Source of the DNA: an uncultured bacterium
Lineage (GTDB): Bacteria; Planctomycetota; UBA1135; GCA-002686595
Assembly (NCBI GenBank): GCA_943787795.1
Contig: CALSNU010000003.1
Coordinates: 128,001 to 192,000 of the forward strand
Reading direction: 5' to 3'
Length of the DNA: 64,000 bases
Shown: positions 24,092 to 39,226 of the stretch, in pieces
Layout: each line of letters begins with the position of its first letter
Position numbering within the stretch: position 1 is the first letter of the stretch
Made by a program: the position numbers and the translations under genes
Notes under the pieces: generated by a model
What the model saw: the letters and a program-made list of their open reading frames with translations, nothing else
What the model was told of the DNA's origin: nothing
Database searches by the model: none

Positions 24092-25237
24092 ATGTCATCA
24101 GACCACCTCAACGTCGCGCTCCTCGGACAGCGCTTCATGGGCCGGGCCCACTCCAACGCGTGGCGCCAGGCCCCCCAGTTCTTCGACCTCGCCGTTCGCC
24201 CTGTCCTGCACACCATCGCAGGTCGGGATGCGGCTTCCCTGGAGGAGTTCGGTGCCCGGTGGGGGTGGCAGAACACGACCACCGACTGGAGCACGATCGC
24301 GGCAGATCCGGCGGTGCAGCTGGTGGATATCGGGACGCCCAACGATGTGCACGAGGCCCCGGCCATCGCCATGCTCGAGGCCGGGAAGCACGTGGCCTGC
24401 GAGAAGCCGCTCTCCGCCACCCTCGACTCCGCGCGGCGCATGCGAGATGCGGCCGCGAAGGCAGCGGGTAAGACCTTCGTCTGGTTCAACTACCGCCGCT
24501 GTCCCGCGGTGGCGCTGATGCATGAGCTCGTGCAGGAGGGGCGGATCGGAGAGGTCCTCCACGTGCGCGGCGCCTACCTTCAGTCGTGGGGTGGACCCGA
24601 CACGCCGATGCTCTGGCGCTTCGACAAGAGCCGCGCGGGCTCAGGGGCCCACGGGGACCTCAACGCCCACATCGTCGACATGGCTCGCTTCGTCACGGGC
24701 CAGGAGGTCGCCCGCGTCCACGGCGGTGTCGCCGAGACTTTCGTCAAGGAGCGCGCTGCCGCGGACGGCTCGAAGCACGCCTCGACCGTGGACGACGTGG
24801 TCGTGTTTCTCGCCACCTTCACTGGCGGCGCCACCGCCTCCTTCGAGGCTTCGCGCCTCGCCCACGGTCACCACAACCGCAACACCCTCGAGGTGAACGG
24901 CACCAAGGGGTCCGTTCGATTCGACTTCGAGGACATGAACGTCCTGCACTTCATCGACGGCACAGAGGACGCTCGTTTGCGCGGCTGGCGGCGCATCATG
25001 TGCACGGACGCCGAGCATCACCCCTACGCGTCGGCGTGGTGGCCGGATGCCCACGTGATCGGATACGAGCACGGCTTCACGAACATGGTGGCTGACATCT
25101 GCTCGGTTCTCGGGGGGGGCGAGCCGCGGGTGCCGCTGCCCGACTTCGCGGACGCGTTCGAGACCCAGGTCGTGCTCGAGGCGGCCCTTGAATCGGCCGC
25201 GTCCGGCGCGGCGGTGGACGTGGATAGCCTCCGCTGA
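24092..25237 (+). CDS. Gfo/Idh/MocA family oxidoreductase
   Basis: FMGRAHS, DIGTPNDVH, GKHVACEKPL, FNYR, WR..AGSGAHGDLNAHIVD. Confidence 0.93.
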   Translation: MSSDHLNVALLGQRFMGRAHSNAWRQAPQFFDLAVRPVLHTIAGRDAASLEEFGARWGWQNTTTDWSTIAADPAVQLVDIGTPNDVHEAPAIAMLEAGKHVACEKPLSATLDSARRMRDAAAKAAGKTFVWFNYRRCPAVALMHELVQEGRIGEVLHVRGAYLQSWGGPDTPMLWRFDKSRAGSGAHGDLNAHIVDMARFVTGQEVARVHGGVAETFVKERAAADGSKHASTVDDVVVFLATFTGGATASFEASRLAHGHHNRNTLEVNGTKGSVRFDFEDMNVLHFIDGTEDARLRGWRRIMCTDAEHHPYASAWWPDAHVIGYEHGFTNMVADICSVLGGGEPRVPLPDFADAFETQVVLEAALESAASGAAVDVDSLR

Positions 25238-25361
25238 CCCGTTCAGAGAAATCGAGGTAAAGGCCGCCCGCGCGCGGCGGGAGCGGGGTCCTCGGCCTCG
25301 CGGGCAGGGAGTACCCTTTTGGTTGCCTCCCGGCCCGTCCCTCTCCAACCTGCTTCGCATC

Positions 25362-26657
25362 ATGATCCGTCTCGTCTTCGCCTCAGCGGTCCTCACCGCC
25401 GGGGCCAGCGCCCAGTCGTTCACCTACTCGCTCGACCCCGCGCTCAGTGACATCTCCGTCAGCGCCAACGTCACGCTGGACCTGACCGGCGATCTGAAGG
25501 GGGTCTTTGACTCGACGGCTAACCCTGGCGGCACGCGGACCATCTCCGGTCTCTTCGGGGATCCGGGAACGAACGCCGAGATCCCCCTCTCCCTCGGCCT
25601 CGGGATCGACCTCAACCTCGGCGGAGCCGGCGCCGGGAGCTTCACGTTGATCTACGACTCGCAGACAGGAGAGGTCGGGGTCGACGAGCTCTTCACGACC
25701 GTTGGGGCCGGCACCACCTCCCAGGCCGACCTCAGCGTGACGCTGCAGTACGACACCTTTCGGACCGCGTCTCCCGGCTCCTTGTTCATCGGGGGCATTC
25801 CGCTGACGCTCCCCCTGGGCGCCGCCACGGCCTCGGAGATCACCCTGGTCCAGTCCGCCCCGGCGGTCGGGACGGCGAGCCCGTCCGGGACCCCGGGCGT
25901 CCTCGACGTGGAGCTCGTCGTGCCGGTTGATCTCAGCCTCGTGGTGGACCTCGGTCCCCTTGGCGGTGGGGCTCCGACGCCGGTTGGGCCGATTCCGTTC
26001 GCCCTTCCTATCAGCGGCGCCTTCGACCTCGGCGCCTGCGACACCCGTCTGGACGCGGTGACGAGCCAGACCATCAGCCAGTCGATCCCGTCCCCGTTCC
26101 CGCTCTCGTTTGACGACCTCCCGCTGGACCTGCCCACGATCTTGCCCCCCGGCAGCACGGCGAACCTCCTGCTCACCGCGGGGCTCGATACGCTGAACCT
26201 CGACGGCGCCGTCAATTCGACGCTCGTCGCGACGGCCACTGACGGCCGCGTTCAGAACGTCTGCTTCGCGCTGCCCAACTCCACCGGGTTCGGCGCTGTG
26301 ATGGCCACCAACGGCAGCCAGAGCGTCGCGAATCAGGACCTGGGCTTCACGGTCTCTTCCTTGCCGCAGGACTCCTTCGGGTTCCTGCTGATGTCGCAGA
26401 ACGAGGTGACCCAGCCCGGTTTCGGAGGCGGTCAGGGCACGCTCTGCATCGGCGAGCCCTGCTTCCGGTTCTCCAACACCGTGCAGAACAGCGGCATCCT
26501 GGGTGAGGTGGCGTTCGCGCCGGACTTCGGAAATCTTCCCATGGGCCAGCAGTTCATCGAGGCGGAGTCGTGGGTCTTCCAGTACTGGTTCCGTGACGCC
26601 AACCCGCAGCCGACGTCCAACACATCGAGCGCCCTGCGAGTGACGTTCTGTCGCTGA
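25362..26657 (+). CDS. Secreted beta-rich protein with shared C-terminal domain
   Basis: Signal peptide [19 protein letters not shown]-terminal domain 26244-26657 (C..PNSTG..QGTLC..FQYWFRD..SN..VTF). Confidence 0.8.
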
Positions 26658-26758
26658 CGCGACGAGAGACCTCCCTCGGCTATCATCAGAGCGCGAGCGC
26701 CCTCCCGGGCGCCCGCGCTCTCTCCGTTCCGACCCTGCAATCTCTGACGACGCTCCCC

Positions 26759-27805
26759 ATGACGCGCGCTGTTTGCCTCTTCACCGGTCAGTGGGCCGAC
26801 CTCTCTCTCGAGATCCTCCTTCCCAAGGTCAAGGCCATGGGCTTCGACGGCGTCGAGCTCGCGTGCTGGGGTGATCACTTCGAGGTCCAGCGGGCCCTCG
26901 CGGAGGACGATTACTGCGCCAAGAAGTGGGAGCTCCTGGAGGCCCACGGGATGGCCTGCTACGCCATCTCGACGCACCTTGTGGGTCAGGCCGTCTGCGA
27001 TCGGATCGACGAGCGCCACGAGTCGATCCTCCCCCCCGAGGTCTGGGGAGACGGCGATCCCGACGGTGTCCGCGCGCGGGCGACCGAAGAGGTCAAGGAC
27101 ACCGCGCGTGCGGCTCGCCGGTTCTTCGACGCGGCGCCCCAGCACGTCAAGGACCGCATGGCGCGGCCCGGCAAGGCGGTGGTGAATGGGTTCACGGGAT
27201 CAGGCATCTGGCACCTGCTGTACTCCTTCCCGCCGGTTCCCAAGGAGGCCATCGACGCGGGCTTCAAGGCCTTCGCCGACGCGTGGAAGCCGATCATGGA
27301 CGTGTTCCAGGAGCACGACGTGCTGTTCGCGCTCGAGGTGCACCCCACGGAGATCGCCTTCGACATCGCGTCCACCCGGCGCGCCTTCGAGGCCATCGAT
27401 CACCACCCCGCGTTCGGGCTCAACTACGACCCCAGCCACTTCGGGTACCAGCGCGTGGACTACCTCGCGTTCCTGGACGAGTTCGCGGACAAGATCCACA
27501 ACTGTCACATGAAGGACGTGTGGTGGTCGGACCAACTCGGGGAGGCCGGCGTCTTTGGCGGGCACACCGACTTCGGCGCCCCGGAGCGCACCTGGGACTT
27601 CCGCAGCATCGGCCGCGGCAGCGTGGACTTCGAGGGGATCATCCGCCGGCTCAACCGCATGGACTACCGGGGTCCGCTCTCGGTGGAGTGGGAGGACGGC
27701 GGCATGGACCGCGAGCACGGCGCCACCGAGTCGGCGGCGTTCCTGCGCAAGCTCGACTTCGAGCCCTCGGCCCGTGCCTTTGACTCGGCGTTTTCGGAGG
27801 ATTGA
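26759..27805 (+). CDS. Sugar phosphate isomerase/epimerase (AP_endonuc_2 TIM barrel)
   Basis: [45 protein letters not shown]. Confidence 0.92.
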
Positions 27806-27882
27806 CCCCGACCGCGGATTGACCCAGGCCGCCCAGACCGTCCCGGCCACCTCGAGCTCCACGTCCCTTCCCCAGATCTTCG

Positions 27883-29187
27883 ATGAGTGACTCCACCGCC
27901 GCCCCGCTCTCATCCAGCTTGAGGACCCGCCTCTCGCTGATGATGTTCCTCCAGTACGCGATCTGGGGGGCCTGGCTCCCGTTCCTCTGGAGCTTCCTCG
28001 CCGACTATCGGGGCATGGAAGGGGCAGAGATCGGCAACATGTTTGCCTTCGGCGCGGTGGGGGCCATCGTCGGGCCGATCATCTTCGGCCCGCTCGCGGA
28101 TCGCTTCGTCTCCACGGAGAAGCTCCTCGCCGTGAGCCACCTGATCGGGGCCGTGCTGGTGTGGCGCATGGCGGAGATCCCCACGGATCAGTTCTGGCTG
28201 TACGCCCTGCTCTACGGGCTCTTCTATATGCCGACCCTGTCGCTGACGAACAGCCTGGCCTTCGCGCACCTGCCGGATCGCGAGCGGGACTTCGGCAAGG
28301 TCCGGCTCTGGGGCACGCTCGGTTGGATCGCGGTGGGCCTCGCCATGGGCCACTGGCTCGCGAGCCAGCACACGCCGGTGGACGCGAGCGCCCAGGAAGT
28401 GCTGCTCGCCCAGGCCGAGGGTAAGGGCGACGCCTTCCGGCTCTCGGGGATCCTGGGGGCGGTAATGGCTGCCTTCTGCTTCTTCCTCCCGAAGACGCCT
28501 CCGGCGGGCTCTGCCGAGAAGAACCCTGCCCTCGCGGCGCTCGGCGCCGTGAAGGCGCAGCCGCTCCTGACGCTCTTCCTGCTCGCCGTCCCGGTCAGCA
28601 TCATCCACCAGTTCTACTTCGTCCACACCGAGCCCTTCCTCGGGGCCCAGCAGGTCGCCGCGCCCGAGTGGTCGAAGGCGATCTTCGGCGCGGGGGGCGG
28701 CGGCGTCATGACCGTCGGGCAGATGAGCGAGACGCTCGTGCTCGGCCTCGTCCCGCTGCTGATCGCGAGGGGCCTCTCCAAGAAGACCCTGCTGGGGTTA
28801 GGGCTCGTGGCCTACGCCCTGCGAATGGCGCTCTTCGCCCACGTGGACGCGATCCCGCTGCCCCCGGCCCTGACGCTCATCCTGGGGGTCGCGCTGCACG
28901 GCTTTTGCTTCGGCTGCTTCATCTTCGTCTCGTTCATGGTGGTGGACGAGTACACGAACCACGAGGTGCGGGCCAGCGCTCAGAACCTCTACAACCTCGT
29001 CATCGTCGGGATCGGCGTCATCGTCGGCAGCATCATCGCAGGCAAGATCTCGGAGTGGGCGACCACGGACGGCGTCCTCGACTACACCCGGCTGTTCTCG
29101 GTCCCGATGTACGCCGCGCTCGCGTGCCTGTTCTTGCTCGTGGCGCTGTACCCGAGGGCCTCGGCGCTCCCCCCGTCCGCGGACTGA
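27883..29187 (+). CDS. MFS transporter, nucleoside:H+ symporter (NupG-like) family
   Basis: LSLMMFLQYAIWGAW, ADRF, YMPTLSLTNS, VRLWGTLGWI, GQMSE, LHGFCF. Confidence 0.9.
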   Translation: MSDSTAAPLSSSLRTRLSLMMFLQYAIWGAWLPFLWSFLADYRGMEGAEIGNMFAFGAVGAIVGPIIFGPLADRFVSTEKLLAVSHLIGAVLVWRMAEIPTDQFWLYALLYGLFYMPTLSLTNSLAFAHLPDRERDFGKVRLWGTLGWIAVGLAMGHWLASQHTPVDASAQEVLLAQAEGKGDAFRLSGILGAVMAAFCFFLPKTPPAGSAEKNPALAALGAVKAQPLLTLFLLAVPVSIIHQFYFVHTEPFLGAQQVAAPEWSKAIFGAGGGGVMTVGQMSETLVLGLVPLLIARGLSKKTLLGLGLVAYALRMALFAHVDAIPLPPALTLILGVALHGFCFGCFIFVSFMVVDEYTNHEVRASAQNLYNLVIVGIGVIVGSIIAGKISEWATTDGVLDYTRLFSVPMYAALACLFLLVALYPRASALPPSAD

Positions 29188-29203
29188 CGGAGCACCCCGC
29201 CAC

Positions 29204-29668
29204 ATGACCCCTCGCCTCGAACGGCTCTTCGGTGAGTACCACGCGTACCACCGTGATCCTGTGAACGTGGCGATCCACAAGGTCGCGGTGCCGGCGATCC
29301 TGTTCCAGATCGTGGCGATGCTGGACTGGATCTCTCTCCCGGTTCGAGTGGCGGGGGTGCCCCTGGGCCTCGGCCTGGTGGCGGCGGTGGTCGTGGGAGC
29401 CTGGTACCTCTTCGTATGTCCTCGGTATGCCGCGGTCCTCGTGCCCTTCGCCATCGGGTGCGCAGTCGTCGGACGCATGGTGCCGAGGCCGGTGGTGGTG
29501 GGCGTCGCAGCGGTGGCCTGGACGGCCCAGTTCGTGGGGCACACCCGCTTCGAGCGGCGGGCGCCCGCCTTCACGGACAACCTCGTGCAGCTCCTCGTCG
29601 GCCCCGCCTACGTGGTGGCGCTGATGATGGGGGACTGGCCCCCGGCGGGCGAGCGAGACGTCGGCTGA
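29204..29668 (+). CDS. DUF962/Mpo1-like membrane protein
   Basis: YH.DPVNVAIHKVAVP, QFVGH..FERRAPA. Confidence 0.85.
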   Translation: MTPRLERLFGEYHAYHRDPVNVAIHKVAVPAILFQIVAMLDWISLPVRVAGVPLGLGLVAAVVVGAWYLFVCPRYAAVLVPFAIGCAVVGRMVPRPVVVGVAAVAWTAQFVGHTRFERRAPAFTDNLVQLLVGPAYVVALMMGDWPPAGERDVG

Positions 29669-29761
29669 CGCCAGCGCGATTCCGACCGTCACCGGGGGCA
29701 GCGAGGCGAGTAGATTGGGCGCCCACGATTCGCGCCCTTCCGGCCCCATCGCTCCCCACCC

Positions 29762-32700
29762 ATGACGCGCTCGCTCCTCGCTCCCCTCGGCCTCGGCGCC
29801 GCCTCGCTCGTCCTCCTCGCCGCGCTGGGTGCGGCGGGCGCTCCGTCCGCCCAGGAGTCCGGGACCTTCCGGGCCGCGCTCCAGAAGGCCGAGCGAGCGG
29901 CCTCCTCGGAGCGCTGGGACGTGGCGGAAGCCTCCTGCGTGCGCGCGCTCGAGCGGGACCGCAAGAACGCAGATGCCTGGGCGCTGCGAGCCCGGGTCGC
30001 CGCCGGCTCGGGCGACGTGGACCTGCAGGTCTACTGCCTCCACCAGGAGCTCCGCTATCTGGAGGCCCAGGGCGCCAAGAAGTCGGCGCTCGCCGATCGA
30101 ATGGCGCAGCTGGAGGCGCTGGACCCGATCGCCGAGGAGCTCTACGACCTGCGCTCCCGCTTCTCCAAGAAGTTCACCAAGGTCGCCCAGGCCTACGAGA
30201 AGGACGACCGCCCCCACGGGGCCATCCGCGTCTGGAAGGAGGTCCTCGCCCTCGACCCCGAGAGCGGTCCCGCCGCCGAGGCCATCGACCGCATCGCGTC
30301 TGCGCCGGATCCGAGCCTGGCGGGTGACGCGAAGCCCAAGGACCTCTTCGGGGATGTGACGGACGAGTGGATCGCCGAGTACGACGCGGAGCACCTCGAG
30401 TGGGAGGACGCGGGACGCGTCGAACGGGACAACTACGTCACCGTGACCAACGCGGGCTACGAGGTGCTCATTCGCACCGCGGAGGCCATGGAGCAGATGT
30501 CGGCCTTCTACAAGCAGTTCTTCCGCTACGGCACGCCCGAAGACGGTCGCAGCGTCTCGCGCATCCAGGTCAACGTCTTCAGGACCCGCGACGAGTACCT
30601 TGAGAAGGGCATCGGCCCGCCCGTGGAGTGGTCCGGCGGTCACTACACCGGGAGCCACGTGGAGTGCTTCATCGGCGACGGCGGGTTCGAGGGCATGGTC
30701 GGCACGCTCTTCCACGAGGCGGCGCACCAGTACGTGTCCATCGCCACCAACGCGGTGGGCTGGCTGAACGAGGGGCTCGCGTCCTTCTTCGAGGGCACAC
30801 GGATCCTGCCCAACGGGGCGGTGCTCATGAACGAGCCCGCCGACGGCCGCCTCTTCCCGCTCGCCGAGCGCATGGAGAAGGGCTGGATGGAGCACGCCCA
30901 GGACGGGTACGACCCCAACGACTCCAGCTCCACTCCGGAGAAGGCGCCCACCTGGGCCATCGTCCTGGAGAACAGCTACTCCTGGGGGCCGCCGTGGTAC
31001 GCGCCCACCTGGGGCGTGGTGTTCTTCTGCTACAACTTCCAGGACCCTGTCGACGGCCGCTTCGTCTATCGCGACGCCTTCTGGGAGTACGTGGACAAGT
31101 CCGGCGGCAAGGTCGGCAAGACCGCCATCAACACCTTCGAGGAGGTGGTGCTCGCGAGCCCCAAGGCGCCCTACAAGGACCTCAAGGGGAAGAAGCTCGA
31201 GCGCCCTGATGGCGACGACTTCGTGCTGCCGACCACGGTGGTCGAGCTGGACGCCATCTGGAAGGAGTGGATCGTCAACCTGCGGGACGAGCGCTCGGGC
31301 AAGCTCGAGCGCGCGCGGCCCTACGGGGACTGGGCCCGGCTCGCGGCGGCCAACGGCGACGCCCTCTCTGCCAAGGAGCACTTCGAGAAGGGCGTCGTGG
31401 CGAACCCCGCGGACGTGGAGCTGGCCTTCGACTTCGCCGGGCACCTCTCCGAGGCCTTCGACGAGAAGGACCGCGCCGCCAAGGTCGTGATGGACGCCCT
31501 GCGCATGCTCGAGGCGGATCCCGTCCCCGACGCCAAGCGCATCGCCCGCGGAGAGCGGCTGCTGGCGCAGCTCGACCCCAAGCGCCGCACCCTGACCCGC
31601 ACCCGGGACGAGCTCGGGGAGGCGGCGCGCTCCCTGGTGCTCTCCTACGCCGAGGCCGCGCGCCCGGCCATGGTGCAGGACATCGCCTGGCGCTTCGGAT
31701 CGGAGTTCGGGCTGCTCGACCTCTTCGATTCCTACGAGGAAGCGGTCATCGCGCGGGGCAGCGACATGGCCATCTGGGACCTCGCCTACAACGAGCGGAA
31801 TCTCGAGGGCTGGACCGTAGGCAACAACGTGTTCCAGCCCGACAGCATCCGGCTCGTGGCGGACAACGGCGGCTTCGACGCCGACAACTTCGACTTCAAG
31901 ATGCTGACCCTCGACCGGGTGACCGCGGGGGACTTCTCGATCCAGGCGGAGATGCTGGCGGAGGAGGGGACCGCGGCCTTCAGCGGCTTCGTCTTCGGCG
32001 CCAAGAGCTCCACGTCGTTCCATGGCGCGGTCTACTTCCCGCCCCGCGAGGGCGCGGCTGGCACCGCGAGCAGCGGCTTCTTCGACGTGATGAGCAGCTA
32101 TGGCGGCGGGGTCGTGAAGGCCTGGCGCCACGTGCCCGTCATCGTGGACGAGGAGGACGAGGGGCCCAGCAGGACGAGCGCGGGGGACTGGAACACCATC
32201 CGCCTCGACGTGATCGGCTCTCGAATCGATGTGTGGTGGAACGGCGGGCTCCTGACGAGCCACGACTTCCAGCTGCGCGACGCGGTCCTCGGCCGCTTCG
32301 GCCTGCTCACGGGCACCGGCGAGGCCCAGTGGCGCAACGTGCGCTACCTGTCGCGGGATCCCCGGGACCCCTCGGGCCGCATCGAGCGGCGGCAGCGGCT
32401 CGAGCGCTCGGGGGCCGACCCGGACAAGCCCGTGGACGGCAGCTACCTCGGCCTGGTGCCGCCGTTCCCCGAGGTCGGGCGCTGGGCTCAGAACCCCCGG
32501 GAGTCCTACGGTGACGTGGGCCCCAACCCCCAGCTGCTTGTCCTGTGGAGCATCGGCCAGAACGAGCTCGTCCCCATCGACGGTTGGCTCACGGCCTTCC
32601 ACCGCCGCTGGGGGCCGGAGGGGGTCGAGATCCTCTCCGTGGTCTCGCCCAACGATGACGAGCGCATCGACGAGTACCTGAAGGCGCACCCCGTCCCCGG

Positions 32701-33469
32701 CAGCGTCGCCGTGGACTCGCGGCCCTACGGGACCACGGGCATCGGCAAGACCTTCACGGAGTACTCCGTCCGGCGCTACAACCTCCCGCGCGTGCTGCTC
32801 CTGGATGTGGACGGCACGGTGGCGTGGGAGGGTGACCCCGGCTTCTCGTCCCAGAGCAAGCCCAAGCCGCCCTTCGCCTCCTACGTGGACACGCCCATGG
32901 AGGACCTGGCCGAGCGTCGGCAGCTGATCTCGGTCCGCCGCTGGCGCGAGTCATGGCAGCGCAAGGGCGAGTCGGCCCTCGCGAGCGGCGACCTCGCCGG
33001 GGCCATCGAGCTCCTGCGCGAGGCGGGGGGCTTCAAGGACTCGCCCTTCCTCGACGTGCAGCGCGCGACGGCGCGACTCCGGGCCATCGAGGAGGCGATC
33101 GAGGACCCCGATGAGGTGATCGAGGTCACCAAGGACGCGGGGACGACCCCGGCGCTGGCGGTGTTGATCGAGTGGGCCGAGGCCCTGGAGACGCCCTTCA
33201 GCAAGAAGCGCAAGGCGGCGGTGAACAAGGCCATCAAGGGCAAGACCGCCTCCCACTGGAAGCGCGCCGCCAAGGCCGCCGCCAAGGCGGGCAAGGGGCG
33301 CGCCCCCGAGGAGGAGCGGCTCGCCGAGCTCACCGCGACCCTGTCCGAGCTCGAGGGGCCGCTCGTGCGTCAGCTCGAGGCGGACGTCCAGGAGCTCGGC
33401 CTCGAGGGCGCCGCGAACGCCGATCAGCTCCCCGCCATCTGGCTCGCGCGGAACGTCTTCGGCTGGTGA
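29762..33469 (+). CDS. Large secreted protein: TPR + gluzincin (DUF1570-like) peptidase + DUF1080-like beta-sandwich + thioredoxin-like domain
   Basis: Signal peptide; HEAAH..WLNEGLA; LEGW..GDFSI..GDWNTIRLDVIGSRIDVWWNG..WRNVR; LLVLWS..YNLPRVLLLDVDGTVAW. Confidence 0.75.
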   Translation: MTRSLLAPLGLGAASLVLLAALGAAGAPSAQESGTFRAALQKAERAASSERWDVAEASCVRALERDRKNADAWALRARVAAGSGDVDLQVYCLHQELRYLEAQGAKKSALADRMAQLEALDPIAEELYDLRSRFSKKFTKVAQAYEKDDRPHGAIRVWKEVLALDPESGPAAEAIDRIASAPDPSLAGDAKPKDLFGDVTDEWIAEYDAEHLEWEDAGRVERDNYVTVTNAGYEVLIRTAEAMEQMSAFYKQFFRYGTPEDGRSVSRIQVNVFRTRDEYLEKGIGPPVEWSGGHYTGSHVECFIGDGGFEGMVGTLFHEAAHQYVSIATNAVGWLNEGLASFFEGTRILPNGAVLMNEPADGRLFPLAERMEKGWMEHAQDGYDPNDSSSTPEKAPTWAIVLENSYSWGPPWYAPTWGVVFFCYNFQDPVDGRFVYRDAFWEYVDKSGGKVGKTAINTFEEVVLASPKAPYKDLKGKKLERPDGDDFVLPTTVVELDAIWKEWIVNLRDERSGKLERARPYGDWARLAAANGDALSAKEHFEKGVVANPADVELAFDFAGHLSEAFDEKDRAAKVVMDALRMLEADPVPDAKRIARGERLLAQLDPKRRTLTRTRDELGEAARSLVLSYAEAARPAMVQDIAWRFGSEFGLLDLFDSYEEAVIARGSDMAIWDLAYNERNLEGWTVGNNVFQPDSIRLVADNGGFDADNFDFKMLTLDRVTAGDFSIQAEMLAEEGTAAFSGFVFGAKSSTSFHGAVYFPPREGAAGTASSGFFDVMSSYGGGVVKAWRHVPVIVDEEDEGPSRTSAGDWNTIRLDVIGSRIDVWWNGGLLTSHDFQLRDAVLGRFGLLTGTGEAQWRNVRYLSRDPRDPSGRIERRQRLERSGADPDKPVDGSYLGLVPPFPEVGRWAQNPRESYGDVGPNPQLLVLWSIGQNELVPIDGWLTAFHRRWGPEGVEILSVVSPNDDERIDEYLKAHPVPGSVAVDSRPYGTTGIGKTFTEYSVRRYNLPRVLLLDVDGTVAWEGDPGFSSQSKPKPPFASYVDTPMEDLAERRQLISVRRWRESWQRKGESALASGDLAGAIELLREAGGFKDSPFLDVQRATARLRAIEEAIEDPDEVIEVTKDAGTTPALAVLIEWAEALETPFSKKRKAAVNKAIKGKTASHWKRAAKAAAKAGKGRAPEEERLAELTATLSELEGPLVRQLEADVQELGLEGAANADQLPAIWLARNVFGW

Positions 33470-33476
33470 TCTCCTG

Positions 33477-33500
33477 CGCCTGCCGGGCCTCCGGCAGGCG
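33477..33500. terminator. Perfect hairpin between convergent genes
   Basis: CGCCTGCCGG-GCCT-CCGGCAGGCG; no clear U-tract. Confidence 0.55.
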
Positions 33501-33502
33501 TC

Positions 33503-35899
33503 TCAGTAGTCGACGACGACCGGCGGGGGGCCCTCGGCGTCCTTGGGTGCCTTGCGGACCGCCGCGGACCGCGTCGTGGTGGCGCCGGACTCGGTCGTGA
33601 CAACGATCTCGTACTCACCGATGGGCAGGTCACTCCAGCGCAGGTCGGGAAAGGGCGAGCTCTCACTGCTTGACCCGCTGGACCCCGCGGTCGCGGACGT
33701 TCGATAGGTCTCGGTGTAGGGTAGCCAGGCGACCTCTCCCGACCCCACGTTCGTTCCGCCTCGGACCAGGCGGACCTGCAGCCCCTGCTTCGGGAAGGCA
33801 GCGAGCAGGACCTCGCGGTTCTCCATGAGCCAGCCCTGGTCCATGGTCGCGATGGCCTGGCGGAAGCCCCCGAGGATCCGGTCGGCGTCTGCGCCGAGGC
33901 TCGCCCGGTCGAGGAAGGTGACCTGCAGGTTGCCCACCTCCGGGCGGGGGACGACGAGCGTCAAGGTCTGGCCCGCGTACGAGCGCATGTGGATCCCCGA
34001 TTGCTCCCAGCGCACGCCCGCGCCTCGGACCACGGCGGTCAACGGGAGGGCCGGGAGGCCCTCGATCAGCTGCGGCTTGCCATTCAGGGTCACCCCGGCG
34101 GACTCAAACGGCCCCGCCTTCACCTCGACCGGCCTCCCGGTCGCGTCCAGGAATTCGAGGGAGCCCCCGGTCCAGTGTTCTCCTGAGTGGTCGAGCACCT
34201 CGACCCGAACGTGGACGGCCTCGACCATCGCCACCTCCCCGAGGTCGTGGACGCCCTTCTCGAAGGCCCTGGGTGCGAGCCGCTTCGAGGCGTAGCCCTC
34301 GGCCTCGAACTCCAGCTCCCAGGTCCCCTCGTCCAGCTTCTCGATCCGGAACCTCCCGTCCGGCCCGACGCTGACGCCGTGGCGGGTGGCCGAGCGGCTC
34401 CCGTCCACGGGTTCAGACCACGTCAGCAGCTGGAACGCCGAGATGGGCTCGCCGCTCCTCTCGTCCACCAGGCGCCCCTCCAGGACCACGCCTCGCAAGG
34501 CCTCGCCGTCCAGCCGGACCTCGACCTCGGACTCGGCTGGCCCGACGGGGACGATCAGCCCCTGCGCTGGAGTGTCCCGGCCCGTGACCCTGAGCGTGCA
34601 GGGGCCAAGGAAGCGGTGGGGGAAGTCGAAACGCCCGCCTTCGCCTGTGCGCCGATCGAATTCACCAAACAGGCTCTCCCAGCTCGGCGGCGTCCCCATG
34701 ACGAGGTCGGACCCCTCGTACATTCGCTCGGACCGGAGCCTGACCCGCACGCCGGAGACGGGCTCGCCGTCTCCGTCGACCACGCGGCCGGTGAGCGGCG
34801 CCGCGCGCTCGAGTCGTAGGACGTTGACCTGCCCTTCGCCGGTCAGGTTCGCCGGCTGGATCAGGCTCACTGCGTGCCCTTGATGGAGGGCGGCAACGAA
34901 CACCGGCGCCCTCCCCCGCTCTGCCGGGTCCTCGATCCCGCCGACCGAGAAACGGCCCAGCTCGTCTGCCTTCGTGCGGGTGCGCCGGTCCCCGGAGCGA
35001 ACCTGCGCCCCTGCTGCTGGCTTCCCCTCGGCGTCCAGGACCAGCCCTGAGAGCTCGCGGCCTCGGTCGAGGGTGATGGTCAGCGCGCCGTCCGACGGGG
35101 AGTGCAGGGGAGATTGGTCCAGATGGCCGGCGGCCTCCACGGAGACCTGGACCCGGGTCTCCTCGACACCCGGGAAGCGGAATCGACCGTCCGTGCCGGT
35201 GACCCGCGGGGGCAGGATCGCACCCGCGATGGAGCCAAAGGTGGTCACCCCCGGGGTCTCCGTGCCATCTGTGCTGTCGAAGCTCCTCAGCGGGTTCGCC
35301 AGGTGGAGAGTGGCGCCCTCCACAGGGCTCCCCTTCGCATCCTCAACCGTCCCGAAGAGGACCGCGGCGGGCGCGAGGATTAGCTCGAGGCCCTCGCACA
35401 CGATGCCCTCGGCGAGGTCGCCGCGTAGGCCGCTGACGCAGACCATGTCCGGGCTAAAGGCGGCGGCCACGAACTTGGGCCCGAAGCCGCTGGCGGAGAA
35501 TTCGCCGTTCGCCGCCGAGACCACGGTCATGGCGGGGTCGCCGAGTGACCGGGGATTGGTCCATATACGCACCTCGGCGCCTGCGACCGTGAACCCCTGC
35601 TCGTCGATCACCCTCCCGGACAGCGTCGGCCCCGAGGTCACGGTCGAGGTGACCTCGGCCGCCTCGTCCGGGGAGGCGGCGAGGGATGGCTCAGCGAAGG
35701 GGGCGGGCGCCTGGGCGCGGGTGTCCCCGGAGGTCACTGGCTCCAGCGCTGCCCCTCGCTCCGCCGCGGGCTCCTGCAGGCTCTGCTTCCTGGGCGTCGC
35801 CTCGGACTCATGGGTGCCGGAGCCGGCCATCCACCAGCCGCCCAGGGCGAGGATCAGCGCGGCGGTGAGCAGGAACAGGGCGGAGGGGAGGTTCTTCAT
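33503..35899 (-). CDS. Carboxypeptidase regulatory-like (transthyretin-fold) repeat protein
   Basis: Start re-called at MKNLPS. N-terminal TM and repeated LSGRVID..G.PV.GA.V..T..DGRF modules. Confidence 0.85.
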   Translation of the reverse strand: MKNLPSALFLLTAALILALGGWWMAGSGTHESEATPRKQSLQEPAAERGAALEPVTSGDTRAQAPAPFAEPSLAASPDEAAEVTSTVTSGPTLSGRVIDEQGFTVAGAEVRIWTNPRSLGDPAMTVVSAANGEFSASGFGPKFVAAAFSPDMVCVSGLRGDLAEGIVCEGLELILAPAAVLFGTVEDAKGSPVEGATLHLANPLRSFDSTDGTETPGVTTFGSIAGAILPPRVTGTDGRFRFPGVEETRVQVSVEAAGHLDQSPLHSPSDGALTITLDRGRELSGLVLDAEGKPAAGAQVRSGDRRTRTKADELGRFSVGGIEDPAERGRAPVFVAALHQGHAVSLIQPANLTGEGQVNVLRLERAAPLTGRVVDGDGEPVSGVRVRLRSERMYEGSDLVMGTPPSWESLFGEFDRRTGEGGRFDFPHRFLGPCTLRVTGRDTPAQGLIVPVGPAESEVEVRLDGEALRGVVLEGRLVDERSGEPISAFQLLTWSEPVDGSRSATRHGVSVGPDGRFRIEKLDEGTWELEFEAEGYASKRLAPRAFEKGVHDLGEVAMVEAVHVRVEVLDHSGEHWTGGSLEFLDATGRPVEVKAGPFESAGVTLNGKPQLIEGLPALPLTAVVRGAGVRWEQSGIHMRSYAGQTLTLVVPRPEVGNLQVTFLDRASLGADADRILGGFRQAIATMDQGWLMENREVLLAAFPKQGLQVRLVRGGTNVGSGEVAWLPYTETYRTSATAGSSGSSSESSPFPDLRWSDLPIGEYEIVVTTESGATTTRSAAVRKAPKDAEGPPPVVVDY

Positions 35900-36138
35900 G
35901 GTGGCGGGATGCCGGGATCGCGGAGGGACGGGGAAGGCTGTCCCGCGCAAGGCTCCGCGCGGGACCCTATCCCGTACTCGATGAGAACCGATCTCTTCAC
36001 TCCGGATTCGATCTCGTCGCCCCTGGCGGCGGCAGGAGGGCACCTGGACTGGCGAGGTCGCCACGCCCGGCTACTTTGGGGCGACGAGAGCCTCCCGTCC
36101 CAGGGCGGCCTTGACCCTTCCCTGAGCCCCAGCCTGCC

Positions 36139-37365
36139 ATGCGAATCCTCCTCTTCTCCGCCTCGATGATCGCCGTGTCCTCCAGCGCCCTCGGGCAGAC
36201 CTGCGAGCACTACTGGGAGTTCAGCTCCACGACGGACCAGGTCGGCGGCCTCGTCACCACCCAGGTGGGCTCGCCCGTGCTCGGCGTCAACGCCACCTAC
36301 GGCGAGGCCTTCCCCGGCGCCGGCCCGAGCCTGAACAACCTGGTGAACGGCACCGCCGGCGGAAGCGGACACCTTGAGGCCAGCCTGTCCTCCGGGGGCC
36401 CCTTGGCGATGGACTTCGGGCAGGACAGCTTCTCCTTCAGCTACTGGGCGTGGGATGACTTCGCCGGCGACGGCGACGCGCGGGGCGTCCGGGTCTTCGA
36501 CAACCTCCTGAACACGGAGGAGGGCATCCAGCTCGGGACCAACCTCGCGAACGACTGGAACTTCCGGGTGGACGATGATCAGGGGGCGGTCCACATCTAC
36601 AACGTCACCTTCCAGTACCAGGCGCCTCGGGACCAGTGGTACCACGTGGTCGGAGTGGTCGAGCGCGCGTCGGGTGGTGGCGGGACCACCACCCTGTACG
36701 TGGATGGCGCCATGGTGATGGCCATCCCCTTTGTGGATACCCAGAGCGGCAGCAACATGGCGGGCAACGTCGCGCCCACCCAGGACCTCCTGATCGGCGC
36801 CATCAACGGCGGCTCCAGCGCGGGGGGCGCGCAATCCCAGGGGCTCGACGACCTGGCGTTCTACCGCGGCGCCCTCTCCGCTGCCGACGCCAGCGGCCTC
36901 GCGAGCGGCGCGCTCCGCCCCCTGGACTTCGGCGGACCGGTGCAGCGCTACTGCTCGCCGGCGATCCCCAACTCCACGGGAGCGCCGGGGACGGTGGACG
37001 CCCTGGGGAGCCTCCAGGCATCGACCAACGCGCTGACCCTCGAGGCCTCTTCCCTGCCCGCCAACGCCTTCGGCTTCTTCCTGACCAGCCAGAGCCAGGG
37101 GCAGATCGCCCAGCCGGGCGGGAGCCAGGGGGTTTTGTGCCTCGGCGGCGGCATCGGCCGCTACGTGGGTCCGGGCCAGATCAAGAACTCAGGCGCCGGC
37201 GGGGCGTTCCAGCTGGCGCTCGACCTGACCCAGACGCCGACGCCGACCGGGCTCGTGACGGTGGTCGCCGGCGACACCTGGAACTTCACCGCCTGGCACC
37301 GGGACGCGGTGGGGGGCTCGGTGACCTCCAACTTCACCGACGCGGTGTCCATCACCTTCCAGTGA
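36139..37365 (+). CDS. Secreted LamG-like jellyroll protein with shared C-terminal domain
   Basis: Signal peptide; SFSFSYW, QWYHVVGV, TLYVDG, LLIGA, LDDLAFYRGALS. C-terminal domain 36931-37365. Confidence 0.85.
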   Translation: MRILLFSASMIAVSSSALGQTCEHYWEFSSTTDQVGGLVTTQVGSPVLGVNATYGEAFPGAGPSLNNLVNGTAGGSGHLEASLSSGGPLAMDFGQDSFSFSYWAWDDFAGDGDARGVRVFDNLLNTEEGIQLGTNLANDWNFRVDDDQGAVHIYNVTFQYQAPRDQWYHVVGVVERASGGGGTTTLYVDGAMVMAIPFVDTQSGSNMAGNVAPTQDLLIGAINGGSSAGGAQSQGLDDLAFYRGALSAADASGLASGALRPLDFGGPVQRYCSPAIPNSTGAPGTVDALGSLQASTNALTLEASSLPANAFGFFLTSQSQGQIAQPGGSQGVLCLGGGIGRYVGPGQIKNSGAGGAFQLALDLTQTPTPTGLVTVVAGDTWNFTAWHRDAVGGSVTSNFTDAVSITFQ

Positions 37366-37369
37366 CCCC

Positions 37370-39226
37370 TTGAAGGCTCTCTCCTTCGGCCTGCTCGCCG
37401 CCGTCTTGGCGGCGGGCCAGGCCCCCGCACAGTCGCCGCCGAACGTCTTGCTGGTCGTCGCGGACGACCTCGCCGCTGGAGCGCTCGGGGCCTACGGCAA
37501 CGCCGAGGTCCTGACGCCGAACGTGGACCGCCTCGCGGCGCAGGGCACGGTCTTCGACGCGGCCTATTGCCAGTACCCGGTGTGCGCGCACTCGCGGGCC
37601 TCCATGCTCAGCGGCCTGTACGTGCAGCAGCTCACCGGCTCCAACGGCAGCTTCACGAACCTCGATAGCGTGCTCGGCTCCCGGGCGACCCTCCCCGAGC
37701 ACTTTCGCCAGGCGGGCTACACCGCCGCTCGGGTGAGCAAGCTCTATCACATGCGGGTGCCGGGAGACATCACCAACGGCGCCGCCGGATCGGACCACGT
37801 GCCCTCATGGGACGTGGCTGTGAATGTTCAGGCGCCGGAGTGGTCGACGCCGGGGACGACGGGGCACTACACCAATGAGACCCTGAACTTCGACCCGAAC
37901 CTGCACTACGGCCTCGGCTTCGGGACGGCGTTCTACACGGTCGAGGCCTCGACGAGCGGCGCCGAGCAAGCGGACCACGTGGCCGTGGACGAGGCCATCT
38001 CATTGCTCGATGGGTTCGGGGGGCAGCCGTTCTTCCTCGCGGTGGGGTTCGTCCGTCCCCACGTCCCCCTGGTGGCGCCCGCCTCGGACTTCGCCCTCTA
38101 CGACCCCGCGCAGCTGCCCCTCGCGCAGAGCGTGCCGGGAGATCTCGCCGACATCCCTGCCGCGGGCATCTTCTGGAACGAAGGCGCGCGGGGGCCGAAC
38201 AGCGACCCCGACCGCCGGGAGGTGTTGCGGGCCTACTACGCCTCGGTGTCCTTCATGGACCGCCAGCTCGGGCGCTTGCTCGACCGGCTGGAGCAGCTTG
38301 GCCTAGAGGACGACACGATCGTCGTGTTCACCTCGGACCACGGCTACCACCTCGGCGAGCACACCTTCTGGCAGAAGCTCAGCCTGCACGAGGAGTCGGC
38401 TCGGGTCCCGCTGATCGCCGCGGGGCCGGGGATTCAGGCGGGGCGTCGGGGGCAGGTGGCCGAGTTGGTGGACCTCTATCCGACCCTCGCGGACCTGGCG
38501 GGACTCCCGGTGCCGACGCACTGCGCGGGGCAGTCCCTGCGCGGGGTGATCGAGGGGACCAGCGGCGAGCTTCGTACGGGCGCCTACTCACGCATCGCCG
38601 GCGGCGAGCTCCTCCGGACGCCGTCGTTCGCCTACATGCGATATAGCAACGGCGCGGAGGAGCTGTACGACATGGGGCCCGCGCCCCTCGGAGACCCGCT
38701 GCAGTTCACGAACCTGGTGGCAGATCCCGCCTTCGCGTCCACCCTCTCGGCGCTCCGCGACCAGCTGGACGCGCGGGTGGCGGAGATCGAGGAGGGATCT
38801 GGCGAGGTCTACTGCGCAGGCGACGGCACGAGCGGGCTCTGCCCTTGCCTCTACTTCGGGGGGCCCGGGGAGGGCTGCCTGCACTCGGCGGGGTCCGGGG
38901 CCACGCTCACGGGCTCTGGCTACGCCAACGTCGCCGCCGATACCCTCCGGCTTGAGGTGAGGGATGGCCCGCCGTCGCGGCCGGGCCTGCTGGTCTCAGG
39001 CCTGGCGCCGACCTCGATTCCCCTGGGGGACGGGCTGCTGTGTCTGCAGACCCAGGTCCGGTACGCGCCGCTACAGCTCGATGCCCAGGGGCGAGCGAGC
39101 TACAGCCAGCTCGGGTCGACCTCCCTGGCGGGGAGCACGATCCACTACCAGTTCGCCTTCCGCGACGCGGGGCCCTGCGGCGGGAGCTTCAACCTGTCCA
39201 GCGCCTGGCGGGTCACCTGGCACTAG
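37370..39226 (+). CDS. Secreted sulfatase (iduronate-2-/choline-sulfatase-like) with shared C-terminal domain
   Basis: PNVLLVVADDL, YCQYPVCAHSRAS, GFVRPHVP, FTSDHGYHLGEH, ELVDLYPT. C-terminal domain 38801-39226. Confidence 0.88.
   Translation: MKALSFGLLAAVLAAGQAPAQSPPNVLLVVADDLAAGALGAYGNAEVLTPNVDRLAAQGTVFDAAYCQYPVCAHSRASMLSGLYVQQLTGSNGSFTNLDSVLGSRATLPEHFRQAGYTAARVSKLYHMRVPGDITNGAAGSDHVPSWDVAVNVQAPEWSTPGTTGHYTNETLNFDPNLHYGLGFGTAFYTVEASTSGAEQADHVAVDEAISLLDGFGGQPFFLAVGFVRPHVPLVAPASDFALYDPAQLPLAQSVPGDLADIPAAGIFWNEGARGPNSDPDRREVLRAYYASVSFMDRQLGRLLDRLEQLGLEDDTIVVFTSDHGYHLGEHTFWQKLSLHEESARVPLIAAGPGIQAGRRGQVAELVDLYPTLADLAGLPVPTHCAGQSLRGVIEGTSGELRTGAYSRIAGGELLRTPSFAYMRYSNGAEELYDMGPAPLGDPLQFTNLVADPAFASTLSALRDQLDARVAEIEEGSGEVYCAGDGTSGLCPCLYFGGPGEGCLHSAGSGATLTGSGYANVAADTLRLEVRDGPPSRPGLLVSGLAPTSIPLGDGLLCLQTQVRYAPLQLDAQGRASYSQLGSTSLAGSTIHYQFAFRDAGPCGGSFNLSSAWRVTWH

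Follow-up and report, generated by a model that had tools for sequence, protein, structure and literature searches.

Three exported proteins and their shared domain

In the genome of an uncultured Planctomycetota bacterium, we analyzed a stretch of 64,000 nucleotides (contig CALSNU010000003.1, positions 128,001 to 192,000; "the window" from here on), and in it a domain of about 140 amino acids (aa) that is shared by three exported proteins with different cargo. The preliminary description of this DNA had read the domain as a protein sorting or anchoring tag. Indeed, the three proteins share it, and both its coordinates and the protein ends quoted at the time were confirmed. Each protein also begins with a Sec-type leader that, by our own heuristic for a hydrophobic N terminus, ends just before a Gln. 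The features are the following.

25362..26657, plus strand: exported protein 1 (ATG start, 431 aa), made up of a signal peptide, cargo and a subtype-A domain
25362..25412, plus strand: predicted Sec signal peptide of protein 1 (aa 1-17, then Gln; called from the sequence and a hydrophobicity-type heuristic)
26244..26657, plus strand: shared domain, copy 1, subtype A (stop codon included; profile search)
36139..37365, plus strand: exported protein 2 (408 aa), made up of a signal peptide, a LamG/concanavalin jelly roll and a subtype-A domain
36139..36195, plus strand: predicted Sec signal peptide of protein 2 (aa 1-19, then Gln; sequence and heuristic)
36433..36888, plus strand: Laminin_G_3 (PF13385) cargo of protein 2 (aa 99-250, above the Pfam cut-off)
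36931..37365, plus strand: shared domain, copy 2, subtype A (query for the structure model, an all-beta Ig-like sandwich with a pLDDT of 97)
37370..39226, plus strand: exported protein 3 (TTG start, 618 aa), made up of a signal peptide, a sulfatase and a divergent subtype-A domain
37370..37429, plus strand: predicted Sec signal peptide of protein 3 (aa 1-20, then Gln; sequence and heuristic)
37439..38503, plus strand: Sulfatase (PF00884) cargo of protein 3 (aa 24-378, above the Pfam cut-off)
38801..39226, plus strand: shared domain, copy 3, which bridges subtypes A and C

The cargo of protein 1 (aa ~18-294) is beta-rich and family-less; this region and all three domain copies gave zero matches in Pfam or NCBIfam. 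Copy 3 is also matched by the profile of subtype C (E = 2.6e-14), and the sulfatase that carries it is the sole domain bearer among the 27 sulfatase paralogs of the genome. The combination of sulfatase and domain downstream of protein 2 is kept in 4/4 close relatives examined.

Abundance, position and exchange of the domain

The source genome (4.71 Mb, 70% G+C, 8 contigs, 85% complete) has 3,450 genes by our own gene calls. A profile built from the three window domains alone matched 104 of its 43,969 reading frames, and the iterated profile kept these 104, while reversed decoy frames scored no better than E = 0.098; the likeness is therefore far beyond chance. Seven further divergent members bring the count to 111 domain-bearing reading frames, several of them fragmentary or frameshifted, with about 95 to 100 carriers intact. 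Domain copies at C6:153991-155905, C1:316455-318097, C4:696347-699998 and C3:534787-535047 are split over frames or fragmentary, which may reflect assembly indels or decaying duplicates, and some carriers have no start codon preceding a leader. Among the called genes the domain is the only large shared C-terminal family, with 98 linked members versus 13 for the runner-up.

The abundance of paralogs suspected in the preliminary description is confirmed by this count, and so is export of the carriers: a hydrophobic leader begins 95 of the 109 called carriers, against 1,203 of the 3,341 other genes (the heuristic made 155 false calls in 2,124 internal windows). Gln follows the predicted leader in 70/93 carriers versus 149/877 other leader-bearing proteins, a bias that recalls pyroglutamate capping in Bacteroidota. 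A lipobox pattern is present in 4/93 carriers, all four of which look false by eye, versus 149/877 of the other leader-bearing proteins, and a further membrane helix was detected in 0/102 carriers at a stricter threshold and in 2/95 at a looser one. Each protein has a single copy of the domain; tandem repeats were never seen. The 101 cargo regions fall into 52 clusters. Cargo that could be named in this genome includes endonuclease I, amidase_3, di-haem peroxidase and choice-of-anchor B; carriers further include a c-type cytochrome, cytochrome c peroxidases and FG-GAP proteins; choice-of-anchor R was found in 2/101 scanned representatives, and choice-of-anchor B and R both score above cut-off. 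When we inspected the gene neighbors of 110 carriers by eye, we saw no recurring partner.

The protein ends no more than 2 residues from the domain end in 102 of the 104 genome matches. One of the two exceptions is a fragment; in the other (C6:243720-244550, minus strand), the signal peptide leads straight into the domain, and a small CxxCH region comes after it. Among the best 150 representatives the domain is C-terminal in 149, and the exception, P0117, again has it directly behind the signal peptide. Unbiased stretches from G360, G308, G157 and G160 (1.97 Mb) gave 49 matches, with 41 C-terminal, 5 behind a signal peptide, 1 internal and 2 cut by the stretch end. N-terminal placements thus total seven (one in this genome, P0117 and five from the unbiased stretches), and the strictly C-terminal position that had been described does not hold. 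Furthermore, 63 linkers contain no conserved cleavage motif ahead of the domain.

According to passages of PMC3237569 (Haft and Varghese), suffix exchange on shared cargo and presence in many copies or in none point to a sorting signal. Counting the window protein and one partial record, the cargo of protein 1 has 47 homologs, of which 27 terminate in subtype A. The others, sorted by eye, have at that junction 12 dockerin-like tails and 7 PEP-CTERM-like tails, and 1 is tailless; when 15 of those 20 were scanned, 3 passed the GC-dockerin cut-off and 3 the PEP-CTERM cut-off. Likewise, 83 of the best 120 of 3,984 endonuclease-I homologs end in the domain, and among 7 scanned homologs with other tails, 2 were above the dockerin cut-off and 2 above the IPTL-CTERM cut-off. 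In these two cargo families, the domain sits where known sorting or anchoring tails sit. It shows the signs of a many-to-one arrangement: leader-bearing proteins have numerous paralogous tails, a genome has either many of them or none, and they are exchangeable with other tails.

We infer retention in the cell envelope and binding of a partner. The reading we prefer is that the domain is a once-per-protein module on Sec-type exported proteins which, uncut, acts as a non-covalent cell-envelope anchor by binding a common partner, and we give it an even chance of being correct. Another role would be to keep proteins in the periplasm or aid their folding there, as a chaperone-docking or stabilizing module unrelated to the outer surface. 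The amidase, the cytochrome c peroxidases and the c-type cytochrome would suit such a module, and Sec leaders by themselves indicate periplasmic export only. However, in other lineages cargo families of this domain end in exosortase-type tails or dockerins, and many cargos, such as the nuclease, LamG, FG-GAP and choice-of-anchor families, are typical of the outer surface. We consider the periplasmic role highly improbable.

There are three related subtypes, A, B and C, and tails of types B and C surfaced in genomes with few or no subtype-A matches. Profile comparison connects A with C (97%, E of 1e-10 to 1e-11) and B with C (93-97%); the direct likeness of A and B is weak (1.4% and 6.7% by hhalign), and the two are joined only via C. 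A second profile, A2, is mostly subtype C with four A-like members, so that its comparison with the subtype-A alignment A1 (99.5%) is partly circular and is not used as evidence. The subtype-A profile matches at least 18,466 protein clusters at 50% identity. Subtype A occurs in 111/201 genomes of the class and in 90/108 of the source genome's own family, mostly filling all 20 scored candidates, and the Saltatorellus ferox genome has at least 150 copies (150/150 scored candidates matched, of 386). With the A2 profile, 60/301 Planctomycetota genomes were positive. In 55 of them 7 to 13 of the 13 scored candidates matched, and in the other five, G187, G220, G246, G265 and G279, one or two did; these counts take in kin and are not independent, and the positives may form one clade. 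They include all 15 other genomes of the source genome's order and whole families elsewhere, and the profile was negative in families f7 (0/15 genomes), f15 (0/15) and f28 (0/10). Near the base of the phylum, the negative families are f28, f37, f53 and f57.

Named relatives found in a single-domain search are nearly all from Planctomycetota assemblies, including Saltatorellus ferox Poly30, and named subtype-C carriers are proteins of Engelhardtia mirabilis and Pla163. In passages of PMC11032199 and bioRxiv 10.64898/2026.10.26.761892, the Saltatorellus clade is one of the first to branch off within the phylum. The domain is not described in those passages, nor in passages of bioRxiv 10.1101/817700, PMC11131199 and PMC3237569, and a literature search over titles and abstract starts, with supplements and most subscription journals outside its scope, found no paper on it. 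The counts over the genome and the phylum uphold the earlier view of a lineage-expanded, cargo-independent module on Sec-exported proteins. The superfamily is real, very large and uncatalogued, and it behaves as an envelope anchor or a sorting tag would.

Predicted fold and comparison with known domains

The domain is predicted to fold as an immunoglobulin (Ig)-like sandwich. A structure model from 43 aligned copies is all-beta with a mean predicted local distance difference test (pLDDT) score of 97, and a subtype-C model (pLDDT 91) has a similar strand order. Both match Ig, fibronectin type III (FnIII) and macroglobulin sandwiches with Z of 7 to 8.4, which is the background level for beta-sandwiches, and there is no standout match. 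The preliminary description had likened the domain to the C-terminal domain (CTD) of the type IX secretion system (T9SS). Comparison with known folds gave generic Ig/FnIII-like sandwiches, and none of the top 50 fold matches is a T9SS CTD; with the best Z, 8.3 to 8.4, at background level and no type IX domain in the top rows, kinship is still compatible. A PDB sequence search gave a best E of 0.15 and no family match, and 30/30 matches in the ESM Atlas are unnamed Planctomycetota clusters. Pfam and NCBIfam returned no family for the three window domains and the 43 members of alignment A1, nor did Pfam for 20 A2 members. The domain had not been assigned to a characterized family before, and it is indeed uncatalogued.

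In subtype A (n = 100), the conserved residues are Cys8 and Cys70 (97% each), Gly67, Arg77, Gly114, Gln120, Arg124, Asp125 and Asn134, with W, Q, R and D conserved in the second-last strand. The cysteine pair is near-invariant in subtype A only and absent from subtype B and many subtype-C members. The conserved disulfide proposed earlier is thus predicted for subtype A but does not extend to the whole family. Lysine is nearly absent from the domain (0.2%).

An Asn-x-Ser/Thr sequon is found at Asn134 in 91/92 and at Asn14 in 76/89 subtype-A copies, versus 14% of cargo Asn. This pattern would fit subtype A being a glycosylation tag, with the sites modified by an AglB-like oligosaccharyltransferase and the glycan retaining the protein. 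The genome does encode an AglB/STT3-like protein (C1:661215-663674; TIGR04154, E = 7e-23, below cut-off), with what we take to be catalytic-type motifs. But subtypes B and C have no sequon, and Asn134 sits within a long strand of the model, which may give the pattern a structural reason. Many domain-rich genomes (e.g., G004, G096, G174 and G256) gave no match to the transferase query used, and the enzyme is present in subtype-A-poor ones, namely G360, G308 and 28/35 genomes of family f3. We rejected it as the partner because its occurrence does not track subtype A, and we see a very slim chance for the glycosylation tag. AglB/STT3-like homologs occur in 91/201 genomes of the class, several per genome in some, which suggests protein N-glycosylation in this class.

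The fold also invites comparison with adhesion or substrate-binding modules, such as carbohydrate-binding modules (CBMs), that would park enzymes on particles, algal walls or other cells. Adhesins and CBM56 share it (6xi3, Z 8.1; 5t7a, Z 6.9, root mean square deviation 3.2, 92 aligned residues), and both the conserved W, Q, R and D of the second-last strand and the variable position of the domain would agree with this role. These Z values, however, are at the beta-sandwich background, and the only CBM family to appear was CBM49, in 1/43 members at an E of 0.11. Moreover, the cargo is mostly not carbohydrate-active, the domain is never in tandem, and self-anchoring tails replace it elsewhere. 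A role in adhesion is, in our estimate, improbable.

Type IX CTDs combine a leader, diverse cargo, an Ig-like tail and many copies with all-or-none occurrence by lineage. The domain studied here likewise joins a Sec leader and diverse cargo to one C-terminal sandwich that is predicted to be Ig-like, as do T9SS CTDs (TIGR04183/PF18962, TIGR04131) and FlgD-Ig (PF13860), and like the T9SS CTD it has tens to hundreds of copies per genome and is all-or-none by lineage. It differs in its length, about 120 to 145 aa versus about 75, and in being found behind signal peptides as well. In the Pfam and NCBIfam scans, TIGR04183, PF18962, TIGR04131 and PF13585 matched 0/43 members at E <= 1, and FlgD-Ig was not among the families at E <= 1 for the 43 subtype-A or the 20 A2 members.

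Dockerins are small helical calcium-binding repeats. The GC-type dockerin of Phycisphaerae (NF041540; PF00404) stands in the position of the domain on shared cargo families within this phylum and is, like the domain, soluble and free of a membrane helix; the domain is unlike it in being a predicted all-beta sandwich without sequence match. Dockerin models did not match domain members, and no cohesin-like partner was identified, although no search aimed at cohesins was run. S-layer homology (SLH) domains are non-covalent envelope anchors at either end of unrelated exported proteins; they consist of three helical repeats and bind the wall polymers of Gram-positive-type envelopes. By contrast, we are dealing with a single beta domain in a diderm lineage, and the Pfam scans gave no SLH match. 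The tails PEP-CTERM and IPTL-CTERM (TIGR02595, TIGR04174; passages of PMC3237569) resemble the domain as exchangeable suffixes with many copies or none, but it lacks their motif-helix-basic tail and matches neither model. The cognate "one" of a many-to-one pair was not found for this domain among three candidates. In its behavior the domain resembles known C-terminal anchoring domains, and it lies outside all their families.

Candidate partners and the case for anchoring

We searched five domain-rich genomes, the source genome (85% complete) and four others (90-95%), for known machinery. PorV was found in 0/5, with the positive control found in Bacteroides. SprA_N and PorP were not found in any of the five, but their positive controls were silent as well, and PF18962 was in 0/5, with controls matching below cut-off only. 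C25 peptidases, the PorU-type sortases, occur in 2/5 genomes, the source genome not among them. Exosortase (PF09721; control found) is present in 2/5 and absent from the source genome, G033 and G099. A specific link to type IX secretion is therefore not supported, given the absence of PorV from all five genomes with a working control.

The genome encodes six secretins, a complete type II secretion cluster and a twin-secretin/ExbBD cluster. In the latter (C5:96451-109817, minus strand), a pair of atypical secretins lies on either side of two helical-repeat proteins and of genes that by eye look ExbB- and ExbD-like, and there is no pilin or ATPase. The cluster is possibly a proton-driven secretin machine; a literature search found no paper on it. 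The twin-secretin type is present in 290/301 genomes of the phylum, usually as a pair 8 to 12 kb apart. With this distribution it could be an exit that all anchor types share, but it cannot be specific for the domain, and we ruled it out as a dedicated partner.

Two tandem giant lipoproteins of 1168 and 1087 aa, the first with Big_5 and a glycine-rich region, are encoded at C4:12902-19787 (minus strand). In several families the pair is syntenic beside a prepilin-peptidase-like gene, and it occurs in 91/301 genomes; it may be an envelope scaffold or S-layer of early-branching planctomycetes. A single-sequence search for the Big_5 lipoproteins looked specific, with 14/24 domain-rich versus 0/24 other genomes. 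A profile search, however, found them in 48/55 domain-rich genomes and 43 others, and they were dropped as partner. We saw no expanded tail in 400 kb sampled from five lipoprotein-positive, domain-negative genomes. Finally, 1.17 Mb of the distant genome G160, compared with the proteome of the source genome, yielded 83 candidates that both share and that bear a leader or end like a barrel; a Pfam scan of 28 of them showed no new outer-membrane barrel. Co-occurrence across genomes, put forward earlier as a way to find envelope partners, was tested for three candidates, and none of them tracks the domain.

What distinguishes anchoring from export? The domain could be the export signal of an undescribed outer-membrane machine, a folded tag possibly removed later, like the type IX CTD. 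Its Ig-like fold, its C-terminal place in 102/104 genome matches and 149/150 representatives and its fixed chain end would all agree with this. So would its all-or-none spread (7 to 13 of 13 scored in 55 of the 60 positive genomes), the selective tagging of 1/27 sulfatases and the excess of Gln after the leader, a rule with a parallel in Bacteroidota. Against an export signal stand the N-terminal placements, the absence of a conserved cleavage site and of PorV (SprA and PorP were also not found, with silent controls), and the two envelope candidates, lipoproteins and twin secretins, that do not track the domain. Cleavage followed by re-attachment at the C terminus, in particular, does not fit an N-terminal domain. 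Because tails are exchanged, carriers have no other anchors, N-terminal placement is tolerated and no cleavage motif is evident, we favor non-covalent anchoring over export.

Several observations weigh against this preference. The chain ends exactly 8 residues past an SNF[TS] motif in 130/135 representatives and in 64/81 genome copies with the motif, and such a fixed end suits a signal that is read at a free C terminus. The three candidate partners (lipoproteins, twin secretins and transferase) all failed co-occurrence tests. Some cargo, namely the peptidoglycan amidase, the di-haem peroxidase and the c-type cytochrome, could work in the periplasm. Moreover, PEP-CTERM and IPTL-CTERM tails serve both to sort and to anchor proteins, and a tail swap therefore does not separate the two functions. 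The fixed C terminus and the overall type-IX-like picture keep a dedicated export signal under consideration, although we hold it to be unlikely; anchoring and export roles could coexist.

If the domain is an anchor, carriers would be exported by Sec to the periplasm, where the domain would fold, with a disulfide in subtype A. Passage across the outer membrane would use a general secretin route encoded in the genome, not type IX. The folded domain would then dock non-covalently, as a dockerin or SLH domain does, on a polymer or scaffold protein of the envelope. The export or surface-tethering tag originally proposed is partly supported, and the evidence leans to tethering over export; the machinery was not found. 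As for the counter-evidence named in the preliminary description, there is no family match, paralogs are many and most carriers have signal peptides.

A dedicated system may exist. In a bolder version, which we hold to be possible rather than probable, the domain would address proteins to an undescribed system for export and surface display, a defining trait of early-branching Planctomycetota (the Saltatorellus clade and many uncultured sister families). This would be a T9SS counterpart without the parts of T9SS, reading a folded Ig domain at either chain end and handling at least 3% of the proteins of these shape-shifting bacteria. The domain marks the likely surface proteome of little-studied planctomycetes, comprising hydrolases, adhesin-like proteins and redox proteins, and offers a means of predicting which enzymes act extracellularly. 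Its occurrence in cultured strains (S. ferox, E. mirabilis and Pla163) makes protein display directly testable, and its clean presence or absence across the phylum is an input for locating the machinery by phylogenetic profiling.

In the window, protein 1 lies within a run of genes (24092-29187) for a Gfo/Idh/MocA oxidoreductase, a sugar-phosphate isomerase-like TIM barrel and a nucleoside:H+ symporter, which is likely a sugar-use cluster. Two genes without the domain lie between the carriers: one for a 1235-aa exported tetratricopeptide repeat (TPR)/3-keto-disaccharide-hydrolase-like protein (29762-33469) and, on the opposite strand, one for a carboxypeptidase-regulatory-repeat protein (33503-35899).

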